From: Candidatus Muiribacteriota bacterium
GTDB lineage: Bacteria; Muiribacteriota; Muiribacteriia; Muiribacteriales; Muiribacteriaceae
Direction of reading: 5' to 3'
Assembly (NCBI GenBank): GCA_051747805.1
Contig: JBNJGP010000001.1
Location: forward strand, 5,281-69,280
DNA length: 64,000 bases
The position numbers were made by a program, and so were the translations under genes. How positions within the stretch are numbered: the stretch's first letter is position 1; each line of letters opens with the position of its first letter. Shown here one piece after another: positions 1 through 58,706 of the stretch. The notes beneath the pieces are model-generated. The model was given only the letters and a program-made list of their open reading frames with translations, had not been told where the DNA came from and ran no database searches.

Positions 1-2901
1 CTGGAACTTTCAAAATCCCATTTCAAAGAATTATATGAATATGCTCCTATAGGTTATGTAATATATGATTTTGAGCTTAAAATAATATCTACTAACAATT
101 ATTTTAATAATTTTTTTAAAAACCATGATATTATTAAGAAAGTTATAACAGATTTTATACATCCCGAAAGTCAGGATTGCTTTTATTTTCATACTCGTTC
201 GCTTATAAAAAATTCCAGAGCCTCCTCCTGTGTTATAAAAATGAAATTAGAGAATAAAACAGTTTTATTTAAAGTTGAAAGTAACACTTTTGAAGAAAAT
301 AAAAAAAAATATATAAGAAGTGCCTTTATAGATGTAACAGTTGAAAAAGAATATGAAAAAGCACAGAATGATTTGAACAATAAATTAATTGAACAGTCAA
401 GAGACCTTTCCGAATATAAGGCGCGACTTGAATCAACAATGCTTTATGGCAATATGGCCTGGTGGCAGGTGAACTTAAAAGATGGAAGTGTGATTTTTAA
501 TAAAAATAAAACAGATATGATTGGAAGAAAGTCTGAGGATTTTACTAATTTTACTAATTTTACAGATTTACTTCATCCAGAAGATTATGAAAAAGCAATG
601 AAGGCAATGAGAGATTATATTTCGGGAGTAAAAGCATCTTATATTGTTGATTATAGAATAAAGCATGTTGATGGCGGTTACAGATGGTTTCATGATATTG
701 GGATTGGTTCTGAGTTTGACGAAAATGGACAGCCTGTTTTAATAAATGGAATTGTTATTGATATTACAGAAAATAAAAATCATGAAAGACTGATTAATTA
801 TCAGAATAAATTTTTAAAGTTAATTGCAGATATTTCTTCTGATTTTATAAATATTAACTTTGATAATATCCATGAAAAAATTAATAGAATGCTTAAAGTA
901 TGCGGGGAATTTTTTAAAGTAGACCGTTGTTATCTTCTTCAGTTTGAAAATGATGAACATATTTTTTCAAATTCTCACGAATGGGTAAATGATGGTGTTG
1001 AGCCAATGATTGATAGAATGCAGAAATTTAATATAAAAGATTTTAAATGGTGGCATAAAAAAATTCTTGAGAATGAAACAGTGTTTGTAAATGATGTTGA
1101 AAAAATGCCTGCTGAAGCTTCTTCTGAGAAAAAAGAATTTAAAAGTCAGAGTATTAAATCGCTTCTGGTAATTCCAATATACAGCAGAAAAAAATTAATG
1201 GGAGTTTTTGGTTTTGATAATGTAAAATTTAGAAGATCGTGGGAAGAAAGTGAAATTGAAAAAATGAAAGTTTTTGCCAATATTGTTTCAGACGCTTTAA
1301 AAAAATATAAAATAGAAAAAGATTTATTACTTGCTAAAAAACAGGCGGAAGTAGCAAATGTTGCCAAGTCGGACTTTCTTGCAAATATGAGTCATGAAAT
1401 CAGAACTCCTTTAAACTCTGTTATTGGTTTTACTGAGCTTTTATATGATACTGAGGTAGATTTTGAGCAGAAACAGTTTTTAAATAATGTGAAAACTTCA
1501 GCTTCATTTCTTTTAGAGCTTATAAATGATATACTTGATTTTTCTAAAATTGAGGCCGGCCATCTGGAGCTAGAAGAAACCCGCTTAAATGTTATAGAGT
1601 TATTAAAAGATATAGTTAATATTATTAAATTCAAAATACATGAAAAAGGGATTAATCTAAAGTTAGAAATAGATGAATTTGTTCCAAAGTTTATAATGAT
1701 TGATATAAACAGGCTTAAGCAGGTTTTAATTAATCTGCTTACAAACGCAGTTAAATTTACAAAAGAGGGCGAAATAACTTTGAAAATAAATTTTAATAAG
1801 AAAAATAATGAGTTTTTATTTGCGGTCTGTGATACAGGAATTGGCATAAAAAAGGAAAATATATCAAAACTTTTTAAAAAATTCAGTCAGGCAGATACTT
1901 CTACTACAAGAAATTTTGGTGGAACTGGATTAGGACTTGTTATTTCCCAAAAAATAATTCAAAAAATGAAAGGAGAAATCTGGGTAGAAAGTGAATACAA
2001 AAAGGGTAGCAGTTTTAAGTTTAAATTCAAAAAAACACCTCTTAATAATAAGGTGTTAAGCAAAAATGATATTCGCTTTCTTCAAAAACTTTTTCTTGAA
2101 GATAGCTTTGAACTGAAACAGGTAAAAACAGATAAAAAAGTTTATTATAATAAATTAAAGGTGCTTTTAGTTGAAGATGTGCTTATGAATATGAACCTTA
2201 TCAGAAGGCTGATAAAAAAAATTCTTCCTGAAGCAGAAATTATAGAAGCTTATAACGGGGTGAAAGCCTTAAATAATTATATAAAAAATCACCCTGATAT
2301 TGTTTTTATGGATATACAGCTTCCGCAAATGGACGGCCGGGAGGCTGCCAGAAAAATAAGAGAATATGAAAAAAAAAATAAAACATTGAAAACTACCATT
2401 ATAGCACTTACGGCCGGGGCTCTAAAGGAAGAAAAAGAAGAATGTCTCCAGGCTGGTATGGATGATTTTCTGACCAAACCAATTTCAGTTAAAAGGTTGA
2501 ATTATATTATATCAAAATATCTTTCAGGTTTATCCTTTAAACAAAATGAGGAACAAGATAAAAATATAAAAAACAGTCACTTTGATAAAAATGAATTTTT
2601 AACTGAGCTGGATAATGATAAAGAACTTTTTAATGAAATGATAGTTTTTGCGATGGAAGAGCTTCCAATACAAATTAATCAATTGGAAAAAAGCATATTA
2701 AATGATAATATAGAGCAGATTAAAGAGCTGGCACATAAAATAAAAGGTTCGGCATATACTATGAAATTTTATAAGCTTGGCAATATTTCGGATGAAATTT
2801 TTTTGAATTTCAACAAAGAAAAATATAAGCTTAGATTGTTGTTTGATATGTTAAAAAAAGAATACGAAGTTGTTTCTAAGTTTTTACGGGAGGAAAAGTA
2901 A
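1..2901 (+). CDS. Hybrid sensor histidine kinase/response regulator, 5' end outside window. Domains: PAS, PAS, GAF, HisKA, HATPase_c, REC, HPt.
   Basis: Frame 1 is open from nt 1 through the ATG at 241 with no stop. The translated upstream part ([26 protein letters not shown]...) is PAS-like, so the gene starts before the window. H-box HEIRTPLN; HATPase G-boxes (DTGIGI, GGTGLGL); receiver with DIQLPQMDG and TKP; C-terminal HPt-like helix (HKIKGSA). Confidence 0.85.
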
Positions 2902-9599: not shown

Positions 9600-9923
9600 A
9601 TGATGTTTAAATGTTCAAAATGTGATTTTATTATTGATGAAAGAAAAGTTGAAAAATGTCCCGGTTGTGGCGAGGATAATCTTATAAAATTAAATGCTGA
9701 GCAGGAAGAAAAAATTTCTAACTCAAGAGAAGAAAATGATTTGCTTATGGAGCTTTCAGGTCTTGTTTCTAATTGTATTGAAATATCGCTTGAGTTAAAC
9801 GAAATAATGGAAACAGGCTCTGATGAAAAATTAATTGAAAAAATGTTAACAAATTTTCCTGAAATAAGAGCATTAATTTATTCAAGGCTTGCCGAAAATG
9901 TAAAAAATGAAAAATGGGGTTAA
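9600..9923 (+). CDS. Small zinc-ribbon protein (CxxC-x15-CxxC) with helical C-terminal region; function unknown
   Basis: MMFKCSKCDFIIDERKVEKCPGCGE. GGAGG RBS 9 nt upstream of ATGATG at 9600. The ORF-track start at 9582 lies upstream of the RBS. Its stop overlaps the stop of the convergent gene. Confidence 0.5.
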   Translation: MMFKCSKCDFIIDERKVEKCPGCGEDNLIKLNAEQEEKISNSREENDLLMELSGLVSNCIEISLELNEIMETGSDEKLIEKMLTNFPEIRALIYSRLAENVKNEKWG

Positions 9924-10510
9924 GAGGCCTTTTTCTCAGATTTTGCCTCTTCTACATTATTACAGCAGAAAATATAAGTTGGCGGAATATTTCTTATAAC
10001 TCTTTTTACATCAATTTTATTAAAAAAAGTTTTAAAGTATTTATGTTTTGCTTTTGAATACTGTATTGTGCTGAATTTACCATTTTTATCAAGTAGCTGT
10101 ATTGACTTATTTAAAATAGTATTAGAAACATTTTCCGGCAGACAGGTATAGGGAAGAGCCGAAACAATATAATCAATACGAGGCATATCAAACTCTTTCA
10201 TATATTCATCAATGTTTTCAGCAGACCCCTGCACAATATGAAGGTTTTCAATATGACCATATTTCTTTTTCAGAAGTTTTGAAAAAGGTTCATTAATTTC
10301 TATTGTTAAAATAACAGTATCATCATTGCATTTTTTTATTAGTTCTTCTGTAAATACACCTGTACCTGGTCCATATTCAACAATATATTTAGATTTTGAA
10401 AAATCAATATCTGAAACCATTTTTCGAGCAGCATATTTTGAGCATGGCATAGCTGTTCCAACATTCACAGGATTAAAAATAGACTGTTTTATAAAAGTAA
10501 ATAATTCCAT
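9920..10510 (-). CDS. Class I SAM-dependent methyltransferase (rRNA-adenine-dimethylase-like fold; COG3963/PmtA-like size)
   Basis: SAM motif I VEYGPGTGVFTEEL, acidic motif II LTIEINE, ~196 aa. Substrate is not assignable from sequence. Confidence 0.55.
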   Translation of the reverse strand: MELFTFIKQSIFNPVNVGTAMPCSKYAARKMVSDIDFSKSKYIVEYGPGTGVFTEELIKKCNDDTVILTIEINEPFSKLLKKKYGHIENLHIVQGSAENIDEYMKEFDMPRIDYIVSALPYTCLPENVSNTILNKSIQLLDKNGKFSTIQYSKAKHKYFKTFFNKIDVKRVIRNIPPTYIFCCNNVEEAKSEKKAS

Positions 10511-10698
10511 GTATAATTGCTCCCTGAATTTAAAGTATTTTTTAATATTTTACTAAATTAACCATAAAAAGTCAATTAAAAAAATTATAGAGCCTAAATT
10601 CTTATTGAGAATTGCAGGAAAAATATATTACGTTATAAAAAAAATTATGTTATAATTAAACAGAATTAGAATATTGAATTAAGTATGGGGGAATCCTT

Positions 10699-12411
10699 AT
10701 GATTAGAAAAACTAAAATTTTCCTTTTGTTTTTACTTGTTTTTTCATTTACTTTTTTTGCATATGAGTATGATCAGGGAGTTACTGTTGAAGGAAATGAC
10801 GTTTATTTTAGATTCTGGGCGCCAGGCAAACAGACCGTATCTGTTGTTGGTGATTTTAATGACTGGGACAAAGAAGCCAACCTTTTAGAACTTGATGGTA
10901 ATGGATATTGGAAAACTCATATTCAGCTTTCAAATGGTCAATATAGATATCAATACCTGATTAATGGTGAAAAGTATATTGGTGATCCATATGCTCGTGA
11001 GGTTGACTGGGACTTTCATGGTCCTAATGCTGTTTTAAGAGTTGGAGAACCTGAATTTGAATGGACTAATGATGATTTTCACATGGCTAATCAGAACGAT
11101 TTAATAATATATGAAATGCATATAGGTGATTTTTCTCCGGAAGGTACATTTAACGGTGCCAGGGAAAGAATACCATATCTTGCAGAGCTTGGAATTAATG
11201 CTGTTAAAATAATGCCAATTAAAGAATTTCCAGGAGATATTTCATGGGGATACAATCCGGCATATTATTTTGCGCCTGAAAACGCTTATGGTACACCTAA
11301 TGAATTAAAAGCTTTGATAAATGAACTTCATAATAACGGTATAGGAGTAATTCTTGATAATGTATTTAATCACTGTTCACATGACCACCCTTTTAATCAT
11401 CTTTACAATTATCATTCAAATCCATACTTTAATAATGTTGGTAATGAATGGGGAATGCCTAACTTTGATGTCTGGGCAGATGCGACAAAAAGACATGCCC
11501 GCGATGTTGTCCATTACTGGGTGAGAGAGTTTAGAATTGACGGCTTCAGATATGATTATACAAGTGGTATTGGATATGATGGCACAGATGGTATGAGTTT
11601 TATTTCCTGGGAGGCAAGAATGGCTGGTAATGCCATGGGTAAATATATTTATCAAATTGCAGAAAATCTCCCAATGAACCCGCATATGACACATACAACT
11701 GAAATAGATGCTCAGTGGAATGATATTTTTCATCATCAGTTAAAGGCAAATCTTCGTGAGGGAAAGTATAAAGATGACTTTTACTTTGGAAATCTTAAAA
11801 GAACTATGCAGGGAATTGATTATGAACAGCTTGGTTATAATGATCACACTCAGGTAATTAATTTTACAGAAAATCATGATGAAGAGCGCGTAATATATGA
11901 GGCTATGACTAATCCTCATATTGATTATCATAAAGCTGTTAGAAAGGCAAAACTAGGCGCAGTTGCTCTATTTACTTCAGCCGGGGTGCCTATGATTTAT
12001 CATGGTCAGGAGTTTGGTATGGATAGTGCTAGAACACTTGATCCGAATAAGATTGATTGGGATAAGTTAAACGAAAGTTATCCCGGCAGTGAATTATATT
12101 CTCATTTTAGGGCACTTATAAATTTAAGGAAAAATCATATGGCTTTAAGACAGAATAATATTGAAGAGGTTTACAGATATAATAATGAAAACGTCTTAAT
12201 TTACAAAAGATGGGATAATCATGGTGATATAATAATAGTTGCTCTGAATTTCTCAGATCAGGATCAATGGGTTGATATACCTGTACCTCATGATGGAACA
12301 TGGCATGAATATTTATTTGATTATAAAGCAAACGCTTCTTCTGGAAAAATTGCCGATGAGCAAATACCGCGTTCTGGGGCTAAAATATTCAGCTTGAAAA
12401 AAACATGGTAG
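10699..12411 (+). CDS. Secreted GH13 alpha-amylase-family glycoside hydrolase with N-terminal CBM48/E-set domain
   Basis: Signal peptide. VYFRFWAPGKQTVSVVGDFNDWD (CBM48 as in branching/debranching enzymes). GH13 regions DGFRYD, ENHDE, VLDNVFNH. RBS GGGGGA. Confidence 0.8.
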   Translation: MIRKTKIFLLFLLVFSFTFFAYEYDQGVTVEGNDVYFRFWAPGKQTVSVVGDFNDWDKEANLLELDGNGYWKTHIQLSNGQYRYQYLINGEKYIGDPYAREVDWDFHGPNAVLRVGEPEFEWTNDDFHMANQNDLIIYEMHIGDFSPEGTFNGARERIPYLAELGINAVKIMPIKEFPGDISWGYNPAYYFAPENAYGTPNELKALINELHNNGIGVILDNVFNHCSHDHPFNHLYNYHSNPYFNNVGNEWGMPNFDVWADATKRHARDVVHYWVREFRIDGFRYDYTSGIGYDGTDGMSFISWEARMAGNAMGKYIYQIAENLPMNPHMTHTTEIDAQWNDIFHHQLKANLREGKYKDDFYFGNLKRTMQGIDYEQLGYNDHTQVINFTENHDEERVIYEAMTNPHIDYHKAVRKAKLGAVALFTSAGVPMIYHGQEFGMDSARTLDPNKIDWDKLNESYPGSELYSHFRALINLRKNHMALRQNNIEEVYRYNNENVLIYKRWDNHGDIIIVALNFSDQDQWVDIPVPHDGTWHEYLFDYKANASSGKIADEQIPRSGAKIFSLKKTW

Positions 12412-12467
12412 TTTGATAAAATATATTAATTAATGTATTAAATATAGTTGGCTTGGGGTATGTTTAG

Positions 12468-13277
12468 TTGTTAAAAAATAAAAAAGTTTTAGTTGTTGAC
12501 GATGAGAAAGATATTTTAAATATTATTGAGTTTTTCTTAAAAAAGCATGGTGCAAACGTGTTGAAGGCGCCTGATGCTTTTTCCGGTCTTGAATATATTT
12601 ATGATTCAGAAAATAAAATTGATATAGTTCTTCTTGATATTATGCTTCCAATACTTGATGGGTTTCAGGTGGCAAAAATTCTTAAAATGCAGAGGGATTA
12701 TAATAAACTGCCTATAATAATGCTTTCGGCCCTTGGGGAAAGTGAAAATATTAAAAAAGGGTTTCAGGTTGGTGCCGATGAATATATTGTCAAACCAGCT
12801 TCTGAAGAATTTATTGTAGATACAATTAAGAATGTTTTGAAAAAAAATGAAAAGCTTATAAACTCAGGAAGAATGTACAACATAAAATTCGAGCTTAAAA
12901 GTGATTTTTCATATATTAAAGAAATCAATGATATGGCCAAATGGATTTTCTCAAATACAGTTGCTCAGGAACAGATGGTGTCGGATTTGATTTATTCTTT
13001 GAATGAAATGTGTGCAAATGCTATTGAGCATGGAAATCGCAAACAGGTGGAAAAAAAGGTTTTTGTCGAATGTGATGTTTTTAAAAATAAAATTATTATT
13101 TCAATAAAAGATGAAGGAAAGGGATTTGATCCTGTTGATACATTAGATCGGCTTGAAAACGCCGATATGTTCAGGATGCGCGGTCGTGGAATGTTGATAA
13201 CCAGAAGTTTAATGGATGAAATTGAGTACAAGGAAAATGGAAAAAAAGTCGTAATGGTTAAAAAGTTTAATTCATAA
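12468..13277 (+). CDS. Response-regulator receiver fused to RsbW/SpoIIAB-like GHKL serine-kinase (anti-sigma factor-like) domain
   Basis: TTG start. REC: VLVVDDEKDIL...VLLDIMLPILDG...YIVKP. C-terminal HATPase_c_2: EMCANAIEHGNR (N-box), KDEGKGFD, GRGMLITRSLMDE (G-box). Confidence 0.75.
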   Translation: MLKNKKVLVVDDEKDILNIIEFFLKKHGANVLKAPDAFSGLEYIYDSENKIDIVLLDIMLPILDGFQVAKILKMQRDYNKLPIIMLSALGESENIKKGFQVGADEYIVKPASEEFIVDTIKNVLKKNEKLINSGRMYNIKFELKSDFSYIKEINDMAKWIFSNTVAQEQMVSDLIYSLNEMCANAIEHGNRKQVEKKVFVECDVFKNKIIISIKDEGKGFDPVDTLDRLENADMFRMRGRGMLITRSLMDEIEYKENGKKVVMVKKFNS

Positions 13278-13314
13278 AAAAAGGGGGCCGTTGAATTTGC
13301 CCCCCCTTTTTTTA
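13274..13314. terminator. Bidirectional rho-independent terminator between convergent genes
   Basis: AAAAAAAGGGGGCcgttgaatttGCCCCCCCTTTTTTT. GC stem flanked by an A-run and a T-run, 0-5 nt from both stop codons. Confidence 0.7.
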
Positions 13315-13322
13315 TTTCTGTT

Positions 13323-14567
13323 TTATTCTAATTCATGAACAATTAAACCGCTTCTTAATTTCGGTTCAAACCAGGTTGATTTAGGTGGCATAACTTCGTC
13401 AGCATCTGCAACATTCATTAGATCATTTATTGATGTAGGATACATTGAAAAACTTACTTTGAATTTATTATTCTTTACAATTCTTTCAAGTTCTTCAAGA
13501 CCTCTTATGCCTCCGATAAAATCAATTCTGTCGTCAGTTTTTGGATCACCAATGTTTAATACAGGTTTAAGAAGATTTTTATATAATATACTTACATCAA
13601 GTGAGTCTATTACATCAGCTTCATTAAAAGTATCTTTTATGGGGGTTAGTTTATACCATTTGTCTTCTAAAAACATTCCAAAAGTGTGTTTTTTTTCAGG
13701 TTTATATTTTTGATTTTGTTCCTCAATTGTGAAATTATTTGAAATTTCTTTAAGAAAGTCTTCGCTGCAAAGACCGTTTAAATCTTTAACTGCACGATTG
13801 TAATCCATAATATAGAGCTCATTGTGAGGAAAAATAATTGATAAAAACCAGTTATACTCTTCATTGCCTGTATGATCCGGGTTTGCCTGTCTCCTGCGGT
13901 CACCGGTTTTTGCGGCGGCAGCCGACCGGTGATGACCATCTGCAACATAAAGGGCTTCAACATCATTAAATTTTTCAATAAGTTTTTTTAGAATATCTCT
14001 GTCGTTAATTTTATAAAATTTATGCTCTATTCCATCCTCTGTTTTAATATTATATACAGGAGAATATGAATTAATCCAGGAATCAATAATGTACTGTATT
14101 TCCCGGTTTTGTTTATACGTTAAAAAAACCGGCCCTGTATTAGCGTTGACTGTGTCCACATGTTTAATTCTATCTTCTTCTTTGGCGGTTCTTGTATGCT
14201 CGTGTTTTTTTATTCTGTTTTCAAGATAATCATCTATATGACAACATACAACAAGCCCTTTCTGATATATATCTCCCATTTTTTCAGTATAAATATATAA
14301 TGAATCTTCCTTTTCCTTTATTAGAATATTATTTTTTTTTAAATTCTCATAATTTTCTTTCCCTTTTTTATAAACCTCATCTGAATATAAATCATTTCCT
14401 GCCGGTAAATCAATTTCGGGTTTTGAAACATGTAAAAAACTGTAATCATTTCCAGAAGCAATTTCTCTGGCTTCTTCGGTGTTTACAACATCATAGGGGA
14501 AAGCAGCAACTTTTTGAGCATGTTCTTCTGCCGGTCTAACGCCTTTAAATGGCTTAATTCTAATCAT
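13323..14567 (-). CDS. DUF1015-family conserved hypothetical protein
   Basis: N-terminus MIRIKPFKGVRPAEEHAQKVAAFPYDVV and ~410 aa length match the DUF1015 pattern. Internal ADGHHRSAAA motif. Confidence 0.55.
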   Translation of the reverse strand: MIRIKPFKGVRPAEEHAQKVAAFPYDVVNTEEAREIASGNDYSFLHVSKPEIDLPAGNDLYSDEVYKKGKENYENLKKNNILIKEKEDSLYIYTEKMGDIYQKGLVVCCHIDDYLENRIKKHEHTRTAKEEDRIKHVDTVNANTGPVFLTYKQNREIQYIIDSWINSYSPVYNIKTEDGIEHKFYKINDRDILKKLIEKFNDVEALYVADGHHRSAAAAKTGDRRRQANPDHTGNEEYNWFLSIIFPHNELYIMDYNRAVKDLNGLCSEDFLKEISNNFTIEEQNQKYKPEKKHTFGMFLEDKWYKLTPIKDTFNEADVIDSLDVSILYKNLLKPVLNIGDPKTDDRIDFIGGIRGLEELERIVKNNKFKVSFSMYPTSINDLMNVADADEVMPPKSTWFEPKLRSGLIVHELE

Positions 14568-14726
14568 AATAAAACCTCCCAGTCTTTTTATATTTTTGGT
14601 AAACGTTTATCTGTAATTATCTATTTAAATTTAAATTTTAAAAAAGGTCAAGTAAAAATAAAGCAATTCATAATGGAAACAGTATTTTCTGATAAATTTA
14701 GAATTGCCTGTAAAAATAGAAGTGTT

Positions 14727-16115
14727 TTAAAGTGATTCTTTTAATGATTTTAGTTTTGTTGTTTCTGGAAGATTTTTTGTAAGGTCGTCAAATATTGATG
14801 AGAAAAATTCAATTTTACCCTGTTTTTGATAAATATCATGAAGTTTTATTATATATGCCTCTTTTTCAAGAGGGGTTTTAGACAGGCTAATTAGTTTCTC
14901 AACATAAAACAGGGTTTTATTTAAATCTTTATTTTTATAAAAGTTAAAACCCATATTTAAAGTTTCAATATCATTTAAGGCAAAAACTCTTTCAAATTGA
15001 AGAGCTTTTTTAACGTCTGTTTCTTTATAAAGAGAAAGTAATGTTTCATTAATTTTATTAGAGTTAAGATAAAGCAGTTTTTTTCCTATTTTAACTGCAG
15101 TATCTAATTCCCCGCTTTTTTTTAAACCAGTTATAAGTTGTATATATTCATCTATATTATCTGCAGAATATTCACTCATTTCAAAAAATGAAGAGGCGGC
15201 CCCGGTAAAATTTTTTTCTCTTAAATTAGATTTGAACTCAAAATAGTTTTTAATAATTTCAGAGTTTATTTTACTGTAATCTATTTTGTCCTGTTTTGTT
15301 TCTTCATTTTTTAAAAAAGAAAAAACTCTGCCTTTTTTATCATTAGTTATATTATTATAAGCGAAAATATCTTTCTGTATGTTATGAAAATGAAAGTTAG
15401 ATAAAAAAATAATTGTGAGTAATATAAAAATTGAAATGATAGATATAAAAGTATATTTCTGGTTTTTTTCGATTTTTTTTATAGTTTTCAGTAAAAAATA
15501 TTTATCAGAATTTTTATTTTCAGTTTTTTGAACAGAATCAAATTCTGAAGCAACAGGGCTATCTATAAGTTCTTCAATATTTTTATGGGAATTAATAATA
15601 TTTTTAACACTTTCATAAGCGCTTTCTTTTATCTGCTGGTCATCGGAGTATAAAAACACATTAAAATCATTTGATATAATGTTGTTAATGATAAGGTAAT
15701 AAGAATTCCAGGCGTTAATTTTTATTAACTGATTACCGCTTTCGGTTAGAGGTTTTATTAAATTTAATATATCAGGATTTGAACATTTTCTGATAGATTT
15801 TAAGGTGTTCAGCTTAATATCATTATCCCGATGATATAATAATTTTTTAAGAGAATCTTTAATTTTGACAAAAGGAAGCTCGTTAATCAGGGTTATAATA
15901 AAGTTTCTAATTTCTGTGTTAAAGAGACTGAAATTTTTTAACAGATTATTTAAAGCACTGTAGTCTTCAAGAATTCTAATATATTCAAGAAACTTAATTT
16001 TATCCTGATTTGTAATATTTTCATTCTGTAAAAATTCTACAGCATTATTTTTATTTATAAAAACGTTTTTCCCCTTTTTATAAAGGAGTTTGTCGTTTAA
16101 ATATTTTTCAATCAT
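14727..16115 (-). CDS. Membrane protein: cytoplasmic HEAT/PBS-like repeats, single TM, periplasmic TPR-like helical domain
   Basis: Repeats around LKKLLYHRDNDIKLNTLKSIRKCSNPDILNLIK. TM segment YTFISIISIFILLTIIFLSNF. C-terminal half is helical-repeat-like. Start overlaps the upstream small ORF (ATGA). Confidence 0.5.
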   Translation of the reverse strand: MIEKYLNDKLLYKKGKNVFINKNNAVEFLQNENITNQDKIKFLEYIRILEDYSALNNLLKNFSLFNTEIRNFIITLINELPFVKIKDSLKKLLYHRDNDIKLNTLKSIRKCSNPDILNLIKPLTESGNQLIKINAWNSYYLIINNIISNDFNVFLYSDDQQIKESAYESVKNIINSHKNIEELIDSPVASEFDSVQKTENKNSDKYFLLKTIKKIEKNQKYTFISIISIFILLTIIFLSNFHFHNIQKDIFAYNNITNDKKGRVFSFLKNEETKQDKIDYSKINSEIIKNYFEFKSNLREKNFTGAASSFFEMSEYSADNIDEYIQLITGLKKSGELDTAVKIGKKLLYLNSNKINETLLSLYKETDVKKALQFERVFALNDIETLNMGFNFYKNKDLNKTLFYVEKLISLSKTPLEKEAYIIKLHDIYQKQGKIEFFSSIFDDLTKNLPETTKLKSLKESL

Positions 16116-16300
16116 TTTTTCTTTTTATCAGATTTTTTTTTAGGTTGATTATTGTTTTTCATTTCTTCTCTTAATTCTTCAAGAACTTTTAGATTATATT
16201 TAACCTCGTTTTTATTTATGATGTTCATATCGTTCATTTTTTTAAAAATATTGTCAAGATTTTCGGCCAGTTCATAGTTTATAAATTCTTTGTAATCCAT
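16112..16300 (-). CDS. Small (62 aa) protein with Lys-rich C-terminal tail, translationally coupled to the downstream membrane protein
   Basis: MDYKEFINYELAENLDNIFKK...KKKSDKKKK. 4-nt ATGA overlap with the next gene. Divergent from the REC-STAS gene. Confidence 0.4.
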   Translation of the reverse strand: MDYKEFINYELAENLDNIFKKMNDMNIINKNEVKYNLKVLEELREEMKNNNQPKKKSDKKKK

Positions 16301-16415
16301 ATTAAAGCTCCTTCCTGTAATTTTTTTGATTTTGTATTTTTGTTTAATCTAACATAAACTTGAAATTAAATCAATTATACGATACTCTTAAAAAAAAATT
16401 CAAGGTATTTCAAGT

Positions 16416-17786
16416 ATGATATTAAAATTAGTAGATGAATTAAAAGAAGAAGATGTTTTAGCCAAGGAAGTAACTCAGCGTGATTCAATTTTATATAAGT
16501 CTGGTAAAGTAATTTCTGAGGACGTTATAAAAAAAATAAAATCACTTGGGATTGGGTTCGTTTATATTGAAGGAAAACCCGGGAAAGATGAGTTAATAAG
16601 ACAGTATAAAATTGAGTTAGAAAATTCACTGCAGACTTCTATTTCCGATGATGAGAAAATCACTTTTTTAATTAAAGAGAAAGTTTCAGCAGAGGATATT
16701 TTTTCTTTTTATGAAAAAATTAATGATATTAATGTAAAAAAAAATTATATTGATTATTGTTTTAAGGATTTTTCAGACAATATATTTAATTTCTTTTTAA
16801 AAAAAATACGGCATGGAATTGAACCTGAAATTGTCTTATATATACTGGATTATCTGGAAAAAAACATAAAGAATATTAATGCTGAAAGTATTATCACTCT
16901 TTATAAAAATTCTAATGCTGAAGTTGTTGAAAAGGTTAAAAATATTCTAAAAAACAATTATTCATTAAGACAGCTTTATGATTTAAAAAAAAGACTTGAG
17001 CTTAAAAACGAGAAGTACGATTTTTTTGACAAAGATGTAAACTTTAACCTTATGCCTCATAAATCTTTCTGGGATATTAGAATTATGGTAGTTTCAAAAA
17101 ATACTGTTGAGCATAATATATTAAAGAGCTATCTTGAAAACCTTGAAATGAACGTAAAGTATTGCGAACCAGATAAAGCCTATGATTTAATTTCCAGTTT
17201 TGATCCTTACATTATCTTTTTTGATTTTGACAGAATTAAAAATCCTTTGAATAAATTTCTATCTGTTTCAAATGAGTTTTATAAAAAGATTTTTTTTATC
17301 ATCAGTTCGAGTGCAGATATCAAACTTTTAAAAAAAACTATGAGGGCCGGGGCAGATTATTTTTTAAAAAAGCCATACTCGCTTCCAAAAATTCAGACTT
17401 ATCTTTCAAAGGCTGTAAAAAATGGCAAGCTGATAGAGCAGCTGGATTTATCTAATAATTTGCTTAAAGTTGATATTAGATATTTTGGTTATAAAATCAA
17501 GAAATTTGACTTTTATGGTGAGTTATCTGCTATGACAACAGATGAAATTAATGAACCTGTTTTAAATAATATTCAAATTGATAAATTTTATTTTTTTGAT
17601 ATGCAAAACTTAGACAGTATTGATATGTCGGGAGTAAGATTTCTTTTAAAAGTAAAAGATGTTGTTAAACAGAAAACAGCCGAGCTGTATCTGCTGAACT
17701 GTTCAGATAAAATTCTTGAACAAATGGGAAATTACAGTAATCATGTTAATATTGTAGAATCCTGGGAAAAGGCAATATGGGTTTAA
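16416..17786 (+). CDS. Multidomain signalling protein: N-terminal helical region, receiver-like domain, C-terminal STAS (anti-sigma-factor-antagonist) domain
   Basis: REC-like: IRIMVVSKNTVEH...YIIFFDFD...YFLKKP. STAS: FFDMQNLDSIDMSGVRFLLKVKD...LYLLNCSDKILEQMG (SpoIIAA-like DxSxxxxDSSG region, here DMSG). Confidence 0.65.
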   Translation: MILKLVDELKEEDVLAKEVTQRDSILYKSGKVISEDVIKKIKSLGIGFVYIEGKPGKDELIRQYKIELENSLQTSISDDEKITFLIKEKVSAEDIFSFYEKINDINVKKNYIDYCFKDFSDNIFNFFLKKIRHGIEPEIVLYILDYLEKNIKNINAESIITLYKNSNAEVVEKVKNILKNNYSLRQLYDLKKRLELKNEKYDFFDKDVNFNLMPHKSFWDIRIMVVSKNTVEHNILKSYLENLEMNVKYCEPDKAYDLISSFDPYIIFFDFDRIKNPLNKFLSVSNEFYKKIFFIISSSADIKLLKKTMRAGADYFLKKPYSLPKIQTYLSKAVKNGKLIEQLDLSNNLLKVDIRYFGYKIKKFDFYGELSAMTTDEINEPVLNNIQIDKFYFFDMQNLDSIDMSGVRFLLKVKDVVKQKTAELYLLNCSDKILEQMGNYSNHVNIVESWEKAIWV

Positions 17787-18286
17787 TCCGGAATTTTTTA
17801 TTTAATTCTGATAAAGAGGGCTTAAAAAGAAGAAAGTCTGAAAAAATAATTAACAGACATAATAATAAAATATTAAAAAGAAATTTTAATTTTAATGCCG
17901 AAGATATCCTGATATTAATGCCGCACTGTGTTCAGTATAAACTTTGTAAAATACGTATTACTTTTAATCCTGAAAATTGTAATCACTGTGGACAATGTGA
18001 TGTTGGAAAACTGGTAAATTATTGTAAAAATAATAATCTTAAACTTGCAATTGCAACAGGCGGTACACTTGCAAGACGTATTATCAGAGAAATAAAACCT
18101 TCCGCAGTTGTTGCGGTTGCATGTCATCGCGATCTCTTATCCGGACTGAAAGAAATAAAAAAAATACCTGTTATTGGAATCTTAAATCAGATTGGAGAAG
18201 ATGGTCCCTGTGTTTCAACAGGATTTGATTTGAAAGAAATAAAAAAGGTTGTTAATTTCTTTCAGGGTTTTGACAAAAAAAATTAA
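17777..18286 (+). CDS. Cys-rich conserved hypothetical protein (DUF116-like)
   Basis: CVQYKLCKIRITFNPENCNHCGQCDVGKL...IATGGTLARRI. Overlaps the upstream gene by 10 nt. The family assignment comes from memory of the motif pattern only. Confidence 0.4.
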   Translation: MGLIRNFLFNSDKEGLKRRKSEKIINRHNNKILKRNFNFNAEDILILMPHCVQYKLCKIRITFNPENCNHCGQCDVGKLVNYCKNNNLKLAIATGGTLARRIIREIKPSAVVAVACHRDLLSGLKEIKKIPVIGILNQIGEDGPCVSTGFDLKEIKKVVNFFQGFDKKN

Positions 18287-18314
18287 AAAATATATCATTT
18301 CTTCGAGGTCAATA

Positions 18315-19283
18315 ATGAAAAAGAAAAAAGACGGAAGTATATTTACTGCTATTTTATATATTATTACATTTGTGGTTCTGGTAAGAGGCATGTTTGTCGG
18401 AACTATTTATGTTATTGAGGATTTTTTTAACGAGGGGCAGGTTCGAGTTCCGGATTTTGTAGGAATGTCTCTTAATGATGCTATGGAACTGGCCCCCAGA
18501 TATAAACTGCGTCTTGAAGTTAAGGGTGAAGCCCATGATGAGCATCTTGAAAAAAATTATATTATTAAACAGGATCCTATTAGTAATTTTTCTGTAAAAA
18601 AAGGGCGCACAATTGAGTTTATAATAAGCAAAGGGAAAAAAGAAAGTATAACTCCCAATCTCAGGGGGATTTCTGTCAGAGAAGCAGAAAGAGTAATTCT
18701 TCAGAATAACTTTTCTATTGGACGTAAAAGCTACGTTTATTCTGATGAACCAGAGGGGGTTATTGTTTCTCAACAGCCTCTGGCTGGCATAAATTATAGA
18801 GAGGGGCAGTTTATAAGTATGCTTGTTTCCAAAGGTGATAAAACTGAGTATGTAATTCTTCCCGAATTTATCGGGGGGAATTATAATAATGTCAAAGATA
18901 CAATTAGAATGATGGGGCTTGAAGTTGGAAACATAAAATACGATTTTGCAGATGAAAAAGAACCCGGCGAAATAATTGATCAACAGCCAGCTTCTGGAAC
19001 CAGACTTGAAAAAGGGGCAGAAATAAACTTGAGAGTGAACCGGAATCGAACCACCAGCCGACAGGAAACCAAGAGAAAAACGGTGAATTTTGAATATGAA
19101 ATTCCAGACGGAAGAGGAGAAAAAGAGCTTAAAGTTATATTGATTGATGACCTCGGCATCAGAGAGGTTCACAGAAGCACATACTCTCCGGAAGCAAGAG
19201 CTTCTTTTACTTTGCATGGCAGCGGAAGAATGAAAGCTTTAATTTATATAGACAATTTAAAAGTCGATGAGAGAGAATATTGA
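18315..19283 (+). CDS. Membrane-anchored PASTA-domain protein (N-terminal TM plus three PASTA repeats)
   Basis: ATG at 18315 (MKKKKDGS) followed by TM FTAILYIITFVVLV. Three repeats of the pattern VPDFVGMS..A...L / ITPNLRGIS..EA / ILPEFIGGNY..V, each ending in xSKG/RVN. Also IIDQQPASG. Confidence 0.75.
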   Translation: MKKKKDGSIFTAILYIITFVVLVRGMFVGTIYVIEDFFNEGQVRVPDFVGMSLNDAMELAPRYKLRLEVKGEAHDEHLEKNYIIKQDPISNFSVKKGRTIEFIISKGKKESITPNLRGISVREAERVILQNNFSIGRKSYVYSDEPEGVIVSQQPLAGINYREGQFISMLVSKGDKTEYVILPEFIGGNYNNVKDTIRMMGLEVGNIKYDFADEKEPGEIIDQQPASGTRLEKGAEINLRVNRNRTTSRQETKRKTVNFEYEIPDGRGEKELKVILIDDLGIREVHRSTYSPEARASFTLHGSGRMKALIYIDNLKVDEREY

Positions 19284-20323
19284 AAATAATCGGACTAGTA
19301 TTAAAACAAAAATATCAGATATTACAGAGAATTGGAGAAAATGAAAGATTTTATACTTTCAGAGGAATTAATATAAAAAATGAATCTCCAGTATTTATCA
19401 AGGTTGTAAAGCAGTCACTTCTTAAAGATAAGAAAAAAATTAAATTTTTCACAGAAGAAGTAAAATCCCTTGCAAAAATAAAACATGAAAACGTAGTAAA
19501 AGTATATGATGTTGATTTTAAAAACGGTATTTTATATGTGGTTACTGAATATATTGAGGGAAAAAGTCTTTATCAGTATATAAGCCAGAAGAAAAAATTT
19601 GATTTCTGGCAGGTTATTCAGATTGTAAATCAGCTTGCCTCTGTTTTGAAATATGCCTTTGATAAGGGAGTTAAATACAGAACTGTTAAACATTCAAATA
19701 TAATTATTACAGATGATATGAAGGTTAAAATTTTATCTTTTAACGTTCCCAGGTCAATTTTATCTCCGCTTCCTGTTAAAATAAAAGAAAACGAGGGTAT
19801 TGACCCGGATATTTTTTTTCTGGGAGTTGTTTTATATGAACTTTTCACACTTAAGTTTCCTCTCAGGGATAAGGATTTACCTGTAACAGATATTTCTATG
19901 CTGGATGAAAATCTACTTGATACAAGGTGGAATATAACATTTGCAGATATTGAGTCTCCCGAAAAAAAAGAAGGAATTGAAAAAGTGATTTATCATTCAG
20001 TTACCCGTAATATACTTGATAGATATAAAAGTATTGAGGAATTTTTAGATGATTTAAAACAATATATAGAAAAAAAAGATAGAAAAGAAAAAACAATGAA
20101 AACTGCAAGTGATGTTACAAATGAACTCGGTGTTAATGAATATGTTTTTAATAAGAGATTTAATGGAAAAAATAAAAATTATTCTAAAAAAACAAAAGAG
20201 GATAAAATATTCAATATTCCAGAGGAAGAACCGGGAGTATTAAGAAAGCAGATAATATTTTTAGTTTCTGCCTTCTCGGTAATTCTTGCGTTAATTTATT
20301 TTATTTACACGCTTCTGTTTTAA
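19280..20323 (+). CDS. Ser/Thr protein kinase-like pseudokinase with C-terminal TM anchor
   Basis: Hanks fold is recognisable (beta3 Lys in VFIKVV, helix-C Glu in EEVKSLAKIKHENVV, APE-region DIFFLGVVLYELFTLKFPL). Catalytic motifs are degenerate: Gly loop GENERF, HRD replaced by YRT (VKHSN retained), DFG replaced by SFN. C-terminal TM IIFLVSAFSVILALIYFIY. 4-nt overlap with the PASTA gene. Confidence 0.7.
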   Translation: MKIIGLVLKQKYQILQRIGENERFYTFRGINIKNESPVFIKVVKQSLLKDKKKIKFFTEEVKSLAKIKHENVVKVYDVDFKNGILYVVTEYIEGKSLYQYISQKKKFDFWQVIQIVNQLASVLKYAFDKGVKYRTVKHSNIIITDDMKVKILSFNVPRSILSPLPVKIKENEGIDPDIFFLGVVLYELFTLKFPLRDKDLPVTDISMLDENLLDTRWNITFADIESPEKKEGIEKVIYHSVTRNILDRYKSIEEFLDDLKQYIEKKDRKEKTMKTASDVTNELGVNEYVFNKRFNGKNKNYSKKTKEDKIFNIPEEEPGVLRKQIIFLVSAFSVILALIYFIYTLLF

Positions 20324-21958: not shown

Positions 21959-21975
21959 GAATAACTGGAGGTCTT

Positions 21976-23409: not shown

Positions 23410-23411
23410 CA

Positions 23412-27125: not shown

Positions 27126-28037
27126 CTATATAAAGTCTTTAATAATTGAAACTATTTCATCACCAACACGCCCCTGTGCTTCTTTTGTCTGTGCTCCAAC
27201 ATGAGGAGAGGCCACAAGAACTTTTTCGTGGTTAACAAGGTCAGAATTATCTGTTGGTTCTTTTTCATAAACATCAATTCCTGCTCCGGCAATTTCATCA
27301 TTATTTAAAGCATTAAGCAGAGATTTTTCACAAACTACACCACCGCGGGCACAGTTAATAAGAAATGAAGTGTTTTTCATTTTTTTAAGCTCATCTTCGG
27401 CAATTACAGGTTCGCCTGTAAAAGGAACGTGAAGTGAGATAAAGTCGGCGTATGATAAAACAGCTTCTTTATCTTTGAAATCAATGTATGAGGGAAGATT
27501 ATCGACTTTGAAAACATCACAGGCAACTACTTTCATACCAACAGCATTAGCAACTTTCGCAAGCTGTTGTCCTATTCGTCCAATTCCTATAATTCCAAGG
27601 GTTTTTCCGGCTAGTTCAAACCCTTTGAATTTTTTCTTTTCCCATTTACCTTCTTTCATTGAAGTGGTTGAATTATAGAGATTTCTTGCAATTGTAAACA
27701 TCATGGCAATTGCTAATTCTGCAACTGCAGCTGAGCTTGCACTTGGAGTATTTGTAACTTTAATTCCTAATTCTCTAGCTCTATCAAGGTCAATATTATC
27801 AAGCCCAACACCACCTCTGATAATAAGTTTCATATTTTGAGCTTTTTCAAGAATTTCTGCTCTCATTTTTGTGGCAGAACGTACAACTGCGATATTATAC
27901 TCTGGTACAACTTCTTTTAACTCATCAGGATTCATACCTGTTTTAACAGTAACATCCAAACCTGAAATGTTTTTTAATGCTTCAAGACATGAATCGGCAA
28001 CCGGATCACAAATTAACGCTTTCATAAAGCCTCCCAT
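27126..28037 (-). CDS. D-isomer-specific 2-hydroxyacid dehydrogenase family (phosphoglycerate dehydrogenase/hydroxypyruvate reductase-like), NAD-binding
   Basis: GIIGIGRIGQQLAKVANAVGMKVVACD (NAD Rossmann). Catalytic region NCARGGVV..E..L and HVGAQTKEA (His/Glu pair). Confidence 0.8.
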   Translation of the reverse strand: MGGFMKALICDPVADSCLEALKNISGLDVTVKTGMNPDELKEVVPEYNIAVVRSATKMRAEILEKAQNMKLIIRGGVGLDNIDLDRARELGIKVTNTPSASSAAVAELAIAMMFTIARNLYNSTTSMKEGKWEKKKFKGFELAGKTLGIIGIGRIGQQLAKVANAVGMKVVACDVFKVDNLPSYIDFKDKEAVLSYADFISLHVPFTGEPVIAEDELKKMKNTSFLINCARGGVVCEKSLLNALNNDEIAGAGIDVYEKEPTDNSDLVNHEKVLVASPHVGAQTKEAQGRVGDEIVSIIKDFI

Positions 28038-46111: not shown

Positions 46112-46493
46112 TGTTTAAAAGCCTTTGCTATTTTTTTAACAGTTTCCTCGTCAGGATTTTCTGGAAGATTTAATTTCTCAAGAGGATTTTCTTTTTTTAT
46201 ATTGATTTTATCATTTTTTCCCTTTTTTTTATTGACTGTAATTTTTTTGTCATTATCTTTTTTTTTAGCCATATAACCCCCAGGTTAGAGATTTCATCAC
46301 TGATAAATCACAGTTTATAAACATCCTTATATATATATCGGTTATTTTGGTTGATTTTCTAAAGTGATTTATTTAGAATTACGTTATTGTTGATTATGAG
46401 CAAATTGACTCAACTCAGATTTATTAAAATTATAATAATTTTTTAAGCTAGACTTGGTTGTTAGAATTAATAATTTTTTTTCAGGGAGCTAAT

Positions 46494-48050: not shown

Positions 48051-48060
48051 AGGAGAAAAT

Positions 48061-48806: not shown

Positions 48807-48826
48807 TAATTTTTAAGAGGTATAAT

Positions 48827-56741: not shown

Positions 56742-57290
56742 ATGAACAGAGAGATTAAAAACAAAATTCTGGATATTGCTTATAAATCTATTTTACATTT
56801 TATTGAAAATAAGGAATTAATTTCTGATTCCCAGCTGAAAATTGATGAAATTAAGGAGCTCAAAGATAAAAGAGGAGCTTTTGTTCTGCTTAAAGATAAA
56901 GAAAGTGATGAGCTTATAGCTTATGAGTATAATATTAATTCTAAAAGGTCTCTATATTTAAACATAAGAGACTTAGCTGTAAAATGTATAAAAAGAGATT
57001 TTAAAGATATTTTGTCCACAGTCGTGGAGCTGAATAAAATTAAGTTTCAAATTATACTTCCTTATAATCTTAAAGCCTGTAGAAAAAAAGAAAATATTGA
57101 AAAATCCAGCCAGGGTATATGTATTCAGTATATGAATAAAACCGCCGCAACTGTTCCTTTTTTAATTAATAAAAAAGAAAAATTAGATAATATACTACAA
57201 AATCTTTGTATTGAGGCAGAACTGCAAAAAGATTTTTATTTGAATGATAATCTTATTTTGTTTACTTTTGATATATTAAATATTTCATGA
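56742..57290 (+). CDS. Hypothetical cytoplasmic protein
   Basis: ATG at 56742 with AAAGGGGAA RBS; the ORF-track start at 56643 lies upstream of the RBS. Stop overlaps the start of the histidine-kinase gene. Confidence 0.45.
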   Translation: MNREIKNKILDIAYKSILHFIENKELISDSQLKIDEIKELKDKRGAFVLLKDKESDELIAYEYNINSKRSLYLNIRDLAVKCIKRDFKDILSTVVELNKIKFQIILPYNLKACRKKENIEKSSQGICIQYMNKTAATVPFLINKKEKLDNILQNLCIEAELQKDFYLNDNLILFTFDILNIS

Positions 57291-58663
57291 AAACCCGATT
57301 AACTAATAAATTAATTTTAACATACTCAATTTTTTTAATTATAATTCTTATAATATCTATTTTTACATATATTAAGTTGAACGAAATAAATAGTATTTTC
57401 CATTCAGCCATTAGAGAATATGAGTTGATTTTAAGAATAAACCGAGTAAAAATTGAATACTTTGAAGATAATAATCTTCATTTAAAAAATGATGAGGAAA
57501 TCAAAGATTTAAATATTGAGCTAAGAGAAATTCGAGAAATGCTGGAAAAAGTTTTAGAAGAAAATGAAATGTTTAATGTTCCTGATTTAACACTTCCTGG
57601 AACCCAAAATTATAATGAGAGAGTGTTAACTTTTATAAATCATTCTGAAAACACTCTGAGAAATCTTTATGAAATAAATATGCAGGAGGTTCAGGTAGCA
57701 AGAAATACTCTTATGGTTTTTGTTTCTTTTACTTTTATATTTGGAATTTTTCTTACCTTTTATTTTTCCCTCACTATTTCACGTCCAATAAATAATCTTT
57801 TAAAGGCGGTAAGGAAGTCAGAAGGTGATAAAATAACGAAAGTTGATAATAAGCTAATGGGAGGGGATGAGTTTGAACTCTTAAACAACGAGTTTAACCA
57901 GCTTTTAAAAAAAGTAAATAATTCCAAAAAAGAACTTTCGCGTATGAATGAAAATTTAGAGATTAAATTAAAGAAAAAAGCAGAAGAAATTAATGAAATT
58001 AACAAGAGAATGTATCATCATCAAAAGCTCTCTGCGCTTGGAAGGCTTGTGTCTGGAATAGCCCATGAAATAAAAAATCCCCTCAATGTTATGTTAAATA
58101 TTCTTCCTGATATTAAAACCGAGGATAAAGAAACTGTCGCTGTATTAAGAAAACAGATAAACCGGATAAATGTCCTCGTATCAGGATTTCTGGATTATGC
58201 AAGATATGAAAAATACTCCATTAAAAAGTTTGATTTTATAAACAGTCTCCAATCTGTTGTTTCTTTTTTTCAGAGGGCCAATAAAAATATTAATGTTATT
58301 ATGGATAATAAAACTGGAAACGATATTATTATTAATGGGGACGAAAACAGACTGGAACAGGCTTTTTTAAATTTACTTGTAAATTCAAAAGAAAGTATGC
58401 AAAATAATATAGAACCTGAAATTACAGTTGAAATTAAATGTATTAAAAATAAAGTTCAAATCAAATTCAGAGACAATGGTATTGGAATTCAAAAGTCAAA
58501 TATACAAAAAGTCTTTGAACCATTTTTTACCACTAAAAAAGAAGGGAATGGTCTTGGACTGGCAATTGTTTATAATATTATAAAATTTCATAAAGGAAGT
58601 ATTGAAATTGACAGCAGGAGGGGGGAATATACGGAGTTTACAATTTGCCTTAATATTGATTAA
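57287..58663 (+). CDS. Membrane sensor histidine kinase (HAMP-HisKA-HATPase_c), NtrB/AtoS-like
   Basis: Two TM segments, HAMP, H-box HEIKNPLN, N-box NLLVNSKE, G-boxes DNGIGI and GNGLGLAIV. Confidence 0.85.
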   Translation: MKTRLTNKLILTYSIFLIIILIISIFTYIKLNEINSIFHSAIREYELILRINRVKIEYFEDNNLHLKNDEEIKDLNIELREIREMLEKVLEENEMFNVPDLTLPGTQNYNERVLTFINHSENTLRNLYEINMQEVQVARNTLMVFVSFTFIFGIFLTFYFSLTISRPINNLLKAVRKSEGDKITKVDNKLMGGDEFELLNNEFNQLLKKVNNSKKELSRMNENLEIKLKKKAEEINEINKRMYHHQKLSALGRLVSGIAHEIKNPLNVMLNILPDIKTEDKETVAVLRKQINRINVLVSGFLDYARYEKYSIKKFDFINSLQSVVSFFQRANKNINVIMDNKTGNDIIINGDENRLEQAFLNLLVNSKESMQNNIEPEITVEIKCIKNKVQIKFRDNGIGIQKSNIQKVFEPFFTTKKEGNGLGLAIVYNIIKFHKGSIEIDSRRGEYTEFTICLNID

Positions 58664-58706
58664 TGGATTTAAACATAAATAGAAAAACAAAGAAAGGAAT
58701 TAAATT

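Follow-up and report, generated by a model that had tools for sequence, protein, structure and literature searches.

The window analyzed here is a 64-kb stretch of AT-rich DNA (G+C content, ~31%) from a Candidatus Muiribacteriota bacterium (contig JBNJGP010000001.1), and all coordinates given below refer to it. At 12468..13277, it carries a gene whose product joins a receiver (REC) domain to a GHKL-type ATP-binding domain resembling RsbW and SpoIIAB and is identical (100%) to an NCBI protein (P0001) annotated as "response regulator [Candidatus Muiribacteriota bacterium]." The start codon is the first possible one after an in-frame TAG lying immediately before it, and a GGGG motif is located ~9 nucleotides (nt) upstream. 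The protein is a member of the known and widespread REC + RsbW-like (Rec-Bergerat) class rather than a novel fusion, and it is an orphan response regulator whose partner is not encoded beside its gene. The features on which the following account draws are collected in Table 1.

Table 1. Features of the 64-kb window that bear on the REC + RsbW-like response regulator
Feature	Position	Strand	Basis and remarks
Hybrid histidine kinase gene, PAS-GAF-HisKA-HATPase_c-REC-Hpt	241..2901	+	Pfam; 9.5 kb upstream of the 12468 gene
GH13 alpha-glucan hydrolase gene; product with CBM48 and a hydrophobic N terminus resembling a signal peptide	10699..12411	+	Pfam Alpha-amylase and CBM_48
REC + RsbW-like response regulator gene	12468..13277	+	269 amino acids; TTG start, TAA stop
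Receiver domain, residues 7-120	12486..12827	+	Pfam; D11, D12, D57, S87, Y106, K109
Receiver helix alpha5, residues 113-132	12804..12863	+	AlphaFold2 secondary structure: helix 113-132, then strand 135-143
RsbW/SpoIIAB-like GHKL domain	12870..13262	+	Structural domain from ~residue 135; Pfam HATPase_c_2 at residues 153-265
N box, E180-N190 (E180, N184, H188, G189, N190)	13005-13037	+	Alignments
G1 box, D215-F220 (D215-E-G217-K-G219-F220)	13110-13127	+	Alignments
G2 box, G239-R240-G241	13182-13190	+	Alignments
GC-rich hairpin, GGGGGC/10-nt loop/GCCCCC	13283..13304	both	Stem 13283-13288/13299-13304; A-run 13276-13282, T-run 13307-13313
Pseudo-receiver + STAS protein gene	16416..17786	+	456 amino acids; Pfam, AlphaFold2; candidate partner only

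Both domains of the regulator were recognized by Pfam far above the family cutoffs, with Response_reg matching residues 7-120 (E = 1.5e-23; 83.5 bits, cutoff 30.2) and HATPase_c_2 matching residues 153-265 (E = 1.1e-21; 77.6 bits, cutoff 27.4), and the related HATPase_c family also matched weakly (27.7 bits, cutoff 26.4). The same scan revealed no further output domain, no DHp/HisKA domain, and no SpoIIE domain in the protein. The original prediction, which was made from the letters of the DNA and their translations, had proposed just such an N-terminal fusion of a receiver to an RsbW/SpoIIAB-type domain, and this was borne out, as were the two motifs that it quoted, the Asp of LLDIMLP and the Lys of YIVKP. 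These are D57 (in VLLDIMLP; codon 12636-12638) and K109, and the acidic pair D11/D12, S87, and Y106 are also in place. In an alignment of 11 full-length relatives, D12, D57, Y106, K109, and P110 of the receiver are invariant, and the nearest receivers are those of the PhoB/YycF (OmpR) type (NCBIfam).

Proper alignment likewise confirmed the N- and G-box residues expected of an RsbW-type kinase. The N, G1, and G2 boxes are invariant among the same 11 full-length relatives. In the nearest 150 representatives of 50%-identity clusters, E180, N184, G189, and G241 never vary, and conservation of D215, G217, and G219 is at least 90%. The boxes also align to those of the solved structures of Bacillus subtilis RsbW (6M36), SpoIIAB (1TH8), Rv1364c, and the Leptospira response regulator LvrC (9QIH), among which LvrC gives the best sequence alignment, followed by RsbW, Rv1364c, and SpoIIAB. 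As the receiver and the ATP-binding and catalytic boxes are both intact, their residues support the general idea, already part of the original prediction, that phosphorylation of an aspartate may gate an RsbW-like output.

In the AlphaFold2 model of the protein (predicted local distance difference test score [pLDDT], 83.9), helix alpha5 of the receiver ends two residues short of the first GHKL strand (beta1, 135-143), and no flexible linker separates them. Such an alpha5/beta1 junction would be rigid and would couple the two domains. A Foldseek search of the PDB with the model returned LvrC as the top match (E = 1.7e-17; 304 aligned columns across both domains), and LvrC was the only PDB entry that matched both domains.

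Proteins of this kind are common. A scan of one genome per GTDB species, confirmed by tblastn, identified at least 450 relatives, of which 80 loci were retained from Acidobacteriota, Planctomycetota, Alpha-, Beta-, and Gammaproteobacteria, Leptospira, Ignavibacteriales, and others. Further, an exhaustive HMMER search with the C-terminal 140 residues against 1.84 billion cluster representatives gave 6922 matches with E values up to 1e-3. Among the best 150 of these representatives, the RsbW-like domain is accompanied by a receiver in 31, by a PP2C (SpoIIE) domain in 14, and by a fused STAS domain in 3, and the rest are mostly stand-alone RsbW-like proteins. Many of the nearest sequence relatives are such stand-alone proteins of ~135 amino acids, and three of them (L061, L068, and L072) are encoded beside a single-domain STAS gene. 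The architecture was noted already in Galperin's 2006 census of response regulators, as cited in the study of TciR from Vogesella indigofera (PMC12826045), whose authors themselves retrieved 100 proteins with the same architecture and a broad distribution (PMC12826045).

If it were novel, a fusion of a receiver to an RsbW-like kinase would provide a direct bridge from two-component to partner-switching signaling, and the original prediction did treat receiver control of an RsbW-type kinase as a departure from the norm. That part of the prediction does not hold: REC + RsbW-like proteins are common and have been described, and the bridge between the two kinds of signaling is already documented functionally by HsbR/CrsR and SypE, genetically by TciR, and structurally by LvrC. 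The structure deposited as "SenB" (9QIH) is LvrC (lic11110) of Leptospira interrogans, a canonical receiver with a Bergerat-fold, RsbW/SpoIIAB-like domain (PMC13269768, Nat Commun 2026). Its receiver is phosphorylated by the kinase LvrB, and it was crystallized as an ADP:Mg dimer (PMC13269768). TciR acts genetically downstream of the kinase TciK and controls the pigment indigoidine (PMC12826045, J Bacteriol 2025). In HsbR (Pseudomonas), CrsR (Shewanella), and SypE (Vibrio fischeri), the receiver controls an RsbW-like serine kinase/anti-sigma domain that acts on a STAS protein; HptB-dependent phosphorylation of the HsbR receiver inhibits the kinase that phosphorylates Ser56 of HsbA, and SypA is the STAS substrate of SypE.

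The window protein resembles each of these systems in part. Like LvrC, it places a canonical receiver directly before an RsbW/SpoIIAB-like domain with nucleotide-binding boxes, and LvrC is the best PDB sequence match to its C-terminal domain (E = 1.4e-7), but the two proteins are only 21-22% identical. It shares with TciR the combination of a receiver and an RsbW-like domain with conserved kinase residues (PMC12826045), although TciR is betaproteobacterial and is encoded with its own kinase, TciK. With HsbR, CrsR, and SypE, which embody the concept of a phosphorelay-gated partner-switching kinase, it has in common the presence of a receiver and an RsbW-like domain in one polypeptide; however, those proteins also have a PP2C domain and a STAS gene alongside, the window protein has neither, and the PP2C-fused relatives form a separate group (14/150). 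Finally, its C-terminal domain resembles RsbW and SpoIIAB themselves (6M36, 1TH8) in its HATPase_c_2 match, in its shared boxes with a glutamate before the N-box Asn, and in the 31 residues that separate the N box from the G1 box. RsbW and SpoIIAB differ in having no receiver and in that their genes come with one for a STAS antagonist and, as a rule, one for a sigma factor (a STAS gene is found beside the stand-alone relatives L061 and L072), whereas the 64-kb window contains no single-domain STAS protein with a D-S-x-G motif, no sigma factor, and no PP2C.

The REC + RsbW-like proteins (loci L004 to L083 and the window) were sorted into subtypes by the distance from the N-box Asn to the G1 Asp. 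A spacing of 31 residues, as in stand-alone RsbW-like proteins, marks a short class, to which the window protein belongs together with further Muiribacteriota, UBP15-like genomes, and many Acidobacteriota; a spacing of 56 to 58 marks an insert class, which occurs in Leptospira and Proteobacteria. The spacing in LvrC is ~56 as read from the alignment, that is, ~25 to 27 residues more between the N and G1 boxes than in the window protein. The insert lacking in the window protein is a feature of the LvrC subgroup rather than of the whole class. TciR probably belongs to the insert subtype, as does the one betaproteobacterial relative that was classified (L048).

The two subtypes also differ in their neighbors. 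Among 35 insert-subtype loci, the adjacent gene encodes a histidine kinase in 14, a PP2C in 3, and a STAS protein in 1 (2 within three genes), whereas a histidine kinase, PP2C, or STAS gene was found neither next to the regulator gene nor within three genes of it in any of the 23 short-subtype loci. This is a further difference from LvrC, whose cognate kinase LvrB is known: genes of its subtype are kinase-adjacent in 14/35 loci, compared to 0/23 for the subtype of the window protein. Pfam assigned HisKA + HATPase_c to 16 and SpoIIE to 3 of the 113 immediate neighbors of 57 relatives; STAS and sigma-70 were outside the 25 most frequent Pfam families among these neighbors, and at most 2 of the 113 neighbor proteins scanned can carry a sigma-70 domain. 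Neighborhood enrichment of STAS, PP2C, or sigma genes was therefore set aside as a route to the partner, as only histidine kinases are enriched and only in the insert subtype.

Short-subtype genes lie among housekeeping genes, and their context gives no partner for the window protein. Those of Acidobacteriota are found among genes for a DNA polymerase III delta-type protein (DNA_pol3_delta2), thymidylate kinase, and GcpE, and those of the next closest relatives (L006 to L008; 32-36% identical) follow a thioredoxin-domain gene and a SIR2 gene. The latter arrangement is a conserved trio of a thioredoxin-domain protein, a SIR2-family deacetylase, and a short REC + RsbW-like regulator (L006:8406-10840, L007:342-2744, and L008:8131-10622) in UBP15-like and unclassified metagenome-assembled genomes; it was confirmed by Pfam in L006 and L007 and was recognized in L008 from equal gene sizes and a fitting SIR2 count. 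Together, the spacing and the neighborhoods suggest that the REC + RsbW-like class splits in two, an insert, kinase-adjacent (LvrC-like) subtype and a short, orphan one. Only the division into subtypes and the orphan nature of the short one are new, and mildly so.

Directly upstream of the regulator gene lies the co-directional GH13 gene, at a distance of 56 nt. A consensus scan and inspection of the sequence found no terminator-like site between them, and the two genes probably share one transcription unit. A promoter scan of 10400-16500 returned 40 sites compared to 34 expected and is uninformative in such AT-rich DNA; the one extended -10 candidate in the gap between the two genes (12394-12422) was accordingly not counted as evidence. 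Downstream, the hairpin at 13283..13304 was missed by the consensus terminator scan, which allows loops of up to 8 nt, and was found by reading and by RNA folding, with predicted energies of -15.8 (plus strand; z = -2.6) and -18.8 kcal/mol (minus strand; z = -3.5). With its flanking A- and T-runs, it resembles an intrinsic terminator acting in both directions, placed where the kinase and DUF1015 genes converge; read in this way, it would close the transcription unit directly after the kinase gene.

The pairing of the GH13 and regulator genes recurs in three other Muiribacteriota loci (L001, L004, and L084). However, the window is collinear with L084 from ~9.9 to ~28 kb, that is, from a methyltransferase gene (9920..10510) to a 2-hydroxyacid dehydrogenase gene (27126..28037), and with L004 starting at the GH13 gene and continuing until the L004 locus stops (~22 kb). 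Conservation of the pair hence has little discriminating power, and the proximity of the kinase and STAS genes was rejected as evidence of linkage since it is part of the collinear block in both L084 and L004. In L084, a Muiribacterium-like metagenome contig, the orthologous regulator gene appears as separate REC and HATPase_c_2 open reading frames (L084:3988-4872). We did not accept this as a natural separation of the domains, as the sequence FLVGADEYIVK is locally duplicated and the duplication contains an in-frame stop, and the split is probably an assembly or strain artifact. Separately, a kinase-only cluster annotated as "partial" (P0008; 172 amino acids) has eight member sequences.

The nearest possible phosphodonor is the hybrid histidine kinase with an Hpt domain encoded at 241..2901, which we regard as a candidate only. 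A second histidine kinase gene (57287..58663) is paired with a gene for a sigma-54-dependent NtrC-type regulator (57287-60053 for the pair). Elsewhere in the window, a cluster at 46458-49966 encodes a carboxyltransferase, an OAD gamma subunit, a biotin carrier, and an OAD beta subunit, the set of genes expected for a biotin-dependent decarboxylase that translocates Na+. An open reading frame on the minus strand at 61576-63801 encodes a class I aminoacyl-tRNA synthetase with a DUF5915 C terminus; it matches tRNA-synt_1 only from profile position 185 and seems to be without the N-terminal part of the catalytic domain, possibly because of a frameshift, because the gene is split, or because translation starts elsewhere.

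The original prediction named the protein encoded at 16416..17786, 3 kb downstream, as a REC-STAS protein and a plausible substrate of the kinase. Searches of the window (Pfam on 56 long open reading frames and six-frame searches) confirmed that this is its one STAS protein and that the window contains no second STAS protein (single-domain ones included), no PP2C, no sigma-70-like gene, and no second RsbW-like gene. The STAS domain (residues ~338-456; Pfam STAS, E = 4.1e-9) is of the SpoIIAA/RsbV type and not of the transporter type: in the AlphaFold2 model (pLDDT, 87.6), its fold matches 4HYL, SpoIIAA (1TIL_B and 1TH8_B), and RsbS with target-normalized template modeling (TM) scores of 0.77-0.86. 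The N-terminal ~220 residues have no Pfam match and are modeled as a small beta region followed by helices. Residues 221-336 adopt a receiver fold (TM score of 0.83-0.87 to KdpE receivers) but reach only 18.3 bits against Response_reg, below the cutoff of 30.2. Alignment to the SLN1 and NtrC1 receivers revealed that D270 and K319 are kept and that the acidic pair is replaced by S227-K228 (S-K, S-T, or S-Y in the four orthologues). This region is a pseudo-receiver, and the "REC" part of the description thus holds for the fold, in which a STAS domain of the SpoIIAA/RsbV type comes after a receiver fold, whereas the proposed role as a substrate is weak, given the pseudo-receiver and the residue at the usual phosphorylation position.

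That position was located by aligning the STAS domain with SpoIIAA, RsbV, and five single-domain STAS proteins encoded at the loci of relatives. SpoIIAA Ser58/RsbV Ser56 corresponds to a Met in the window protein (D403-M404-S405-G406). The motif is DMSG in the closest orthologue (P0271) as well and DSAG in the more distant P0272 and P0273, so that a Ser is found within a D-x-x-G motif in all four orthologues, at the start of helix 404-419. As judged from the alignment, the phospho-acceptor is ambiguous, being neither clearly present nor clearly absent. The family of this protein consists of four proteins, all from Muiribacteriota, among 5.8 billion sequences.

A terminator-like hairpin and two opposite-strand genes lie between the regulator gene and 16416..17786, which heads a co-directional cluster encoding DUF116, a PASTA protein, a Hanks-type kinase, Rpe, a GalT-like protein, GlgA, a second GalT-like protein, phosphoglucomutase, and CoaE. 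Within this cluster, at 18249-20323, the gene for the PASTA protein, which has three PASTA repeats, lies upstream of the Hanks-type Ser/Thr kinase gene with a 4-nt overlap, as it also does in L004 and L084; this split pair reverses the order found in PknB/PrkC, where the PASTA repeats are C-terminal to the kinase. At 20978-25835, a GlgA-type glycogen synthase gene sits between two paralogous GalT/HIT-like (DUF4921-type) genes and is followed by the phosphoglucomutase gene, and these glycogen genes run in the same direction as those for the STAS protein, the PASTA protein, and the kinase.

By analogy with characterized relatives, we hypothesize, with moderate confidence, that the 12468..13277 product is an orphan REC + RsbW-like response regulator in which phosphorylation of D57 would gate the binding or release of a partner by the GHKL domain. 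The phosphoryl group on D57 would come from a histidine kinase or an Hpt protein whose gene lies elsewhere, and the resulting rearrangement of alpha4-beta5-alpha5 would pass through the alpha5/beta1 junction to the RsbW-like N-terminal surface for dimerization and partner binding. The ATP-loaded GHKL domain would then either hold, and probably phosphorylate on serine, a protein partner or not do so, and the output would consist of partner binding and release, not of DNA binding. In LvrC, beta1/alpha1 forms the dimer joint and the 4-5-5 (alpha4-beta5-alpha5) face of the receiver contacts the Bergerat domain (PMC13269768). RsbW and SpoIIAB also dimerize through beta1/alpha1, and from this shared interface we infer, by homology, that phosphorylation of D57 would probably reset the dimer and the partner surface of the window protein. 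As to the partner, a regulator or sigma factor encoded elsewhere is a candidate to which we give nearly even weight; a STAS protein is conceivable at a lower level of confidence, with the 16416..17786 protein in particular a doubtful choice; and a partner of some other kind seems unlikely.

Several observations weigh against this hypothesis. The mechanism is a prediction from relatives, for the window protein as for the whole short subtype, and in those relatives, sigma binding and serine-kinase activity are themselves putative, be it for LvrC (PMC13269768) or for TciR (PMC12826045). Moreover, the characterized relatives (LvrC and probably TciR) are of the insert subtype, which often has a histidine kinase adjacent to it (14/35 loci); with a spacing of 31 residues and no adjacent kinase in the window, extrapolation from LvrC and TciR is uncertain. 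Finally, the global TM score between the model and LvrC is low (0.43; root mean square deviation, 15.8 Å) because the orientation of the domains differs.

The main alternatives concern the identity of the partner. According to the original prediction, the protein is a phosphorelay-gated serine kinase that phosphorylates S405 (D-M-S-G) of the 16416..17786 protein in a partner switch. The intact kinase boxes, including the conserved E180, the SpoIIAA/RsbV/RsbS fold of the C terminus of the only STAS protein in the window, the one serine kept in D-x-x-G (DSAG or DMSG) in 4/4 orthologues, the presence of a hybrid kinase with Hpt in the window, and the distance of 3 to 5 kb between regulator and STAS genes in three Muiribacteriota assemblies are all consistent with this model. 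We nevertheless consider it improbable, as the position equivalent to SpoIIAA Ser58/RsbV Ser56 is a Met in the protein and its closest orthologue, the proximity belongs to a collinear block that also spans unrelated genes, and the two genes are in different transcription units parted by the terminator and two opposite-strand genes. Further, the STAS family was found only in Muiribacteriota, whereas the short kinases cross phyla with a STAS gene nearby in 0/23 loci; the co-directional PASTA protein and Hanks-type kinase are equally plausible partners; and the window encodes no PP2C to reverse the phosphorylation. A somewhat better, although still tentative, alternative takes the protein for an anti-sigma factor operating without any STAS protein, in which the unphosphorylated dimer would sequester an alternative sigma factor encoded elsewhere, phosphorylation of D57 would release it, and the receiver would take the place of the STAS antagonist. 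This model was proposed for LvrC (PMC13269768), whose two-domain arrangement the window protein shares and whose structure fits its model best, and likewise by the authors of the TciR study, whose organism is without an RsbV homologue (PMC12826045); the absence of STAS and PP2C genes near 23/23 short-subtype genes also fits a STAS-independent switch. However, in LvrC and TciR themselves, the sigma factor is hypothetical (PMC13269768, PMC12826045), and neither the window, which has no sigma-70-family gene, nor the neighbors of the 57 relatives, of which at most 2/113 can carry such a domain, supply one. The presence of the putative catalytic E180 in 150/150 representatives also suggests selection for phosphotransfer, beyond binding. 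Binding of sigma F by SpoIIAB, however, also requires ATP binding.

The remaining alternatives differ in kind. One is a lineage-specific role in alpha-glucan metabolism, in which the regulator, co-transcribed with a secreted GH13/CBM48 hydrolase, would tune carbohydrate use posttranslationally, and which fits any model of the partner. The 56-nt gap without a terminator before the regulator gene, the strong terminator-like hairpin right after it, the occurrence of the GH13-regulator pair in four Muiribacteriota loci with 57-73% protein identity, and the GlgA, two GalT/HIT-like, and phosphoglucomutase genes in the cluster headed by the STAS gene all point in this direction, as does partner-switch-like control of polysaccharides by SypE/SypA and by the Anabaena HenR/STAS module (as outlined in PMC13555669). 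Yet the four loci represent one phylum with extended collinearity, which leaves the conservation of the pair with little weight, and the relatives that neighbor thioredoxin-domain and SIR2 genes or DNA_pol3_delta2, thymidylate kinase, and GcpE genes argue against a general link to glucans; we therefore regard such a role as quite improbable. The other is that the GHKL domain is neither a protein kinase nor part of a partner switch but a relic of a histidine kinase catalytic domain or a nucleotide-sensing module. Although this could account for the weak HATPase_c match, and kinase activity is putative throughout the REC + RsbW-like proteins, HATPase_c_2 scores far higher, there is no DHp/HisKA domain, all boxes are strongly conserved, and the nearest sequence relatives are the stand-alone RsbW-like proteins, three of them beside single-domain STAS genes, so that this alternative appears very improbable indeed.

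Compared with these alternatives, the gating of partner binding by phosphorylation of D57 in an orphan regulator remains the reading that we favor. On a far more speculative note, to which we attach little confidence, the short proteins may form a functionally distinct orphan branch, which in Muiribacteriota may have recruited the lineage-specific 16416..17786 protein, with its motif serine displaced by one position (DMSG), as a partner, thereby linking a two-component input to alpha-glucan degradation (GH13) and glycogen synthesis (GlgA cluster). The 12468..13277 locus adds one more member to the REC + RsbW-like class, from a poorly studied candidate phylum, and the split between short and insert subtypes should be weighed before the mechanism of LvrC is generalized. 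Each well-resolved example aids comparative approaches to the targets of the LvrC/TciR class.

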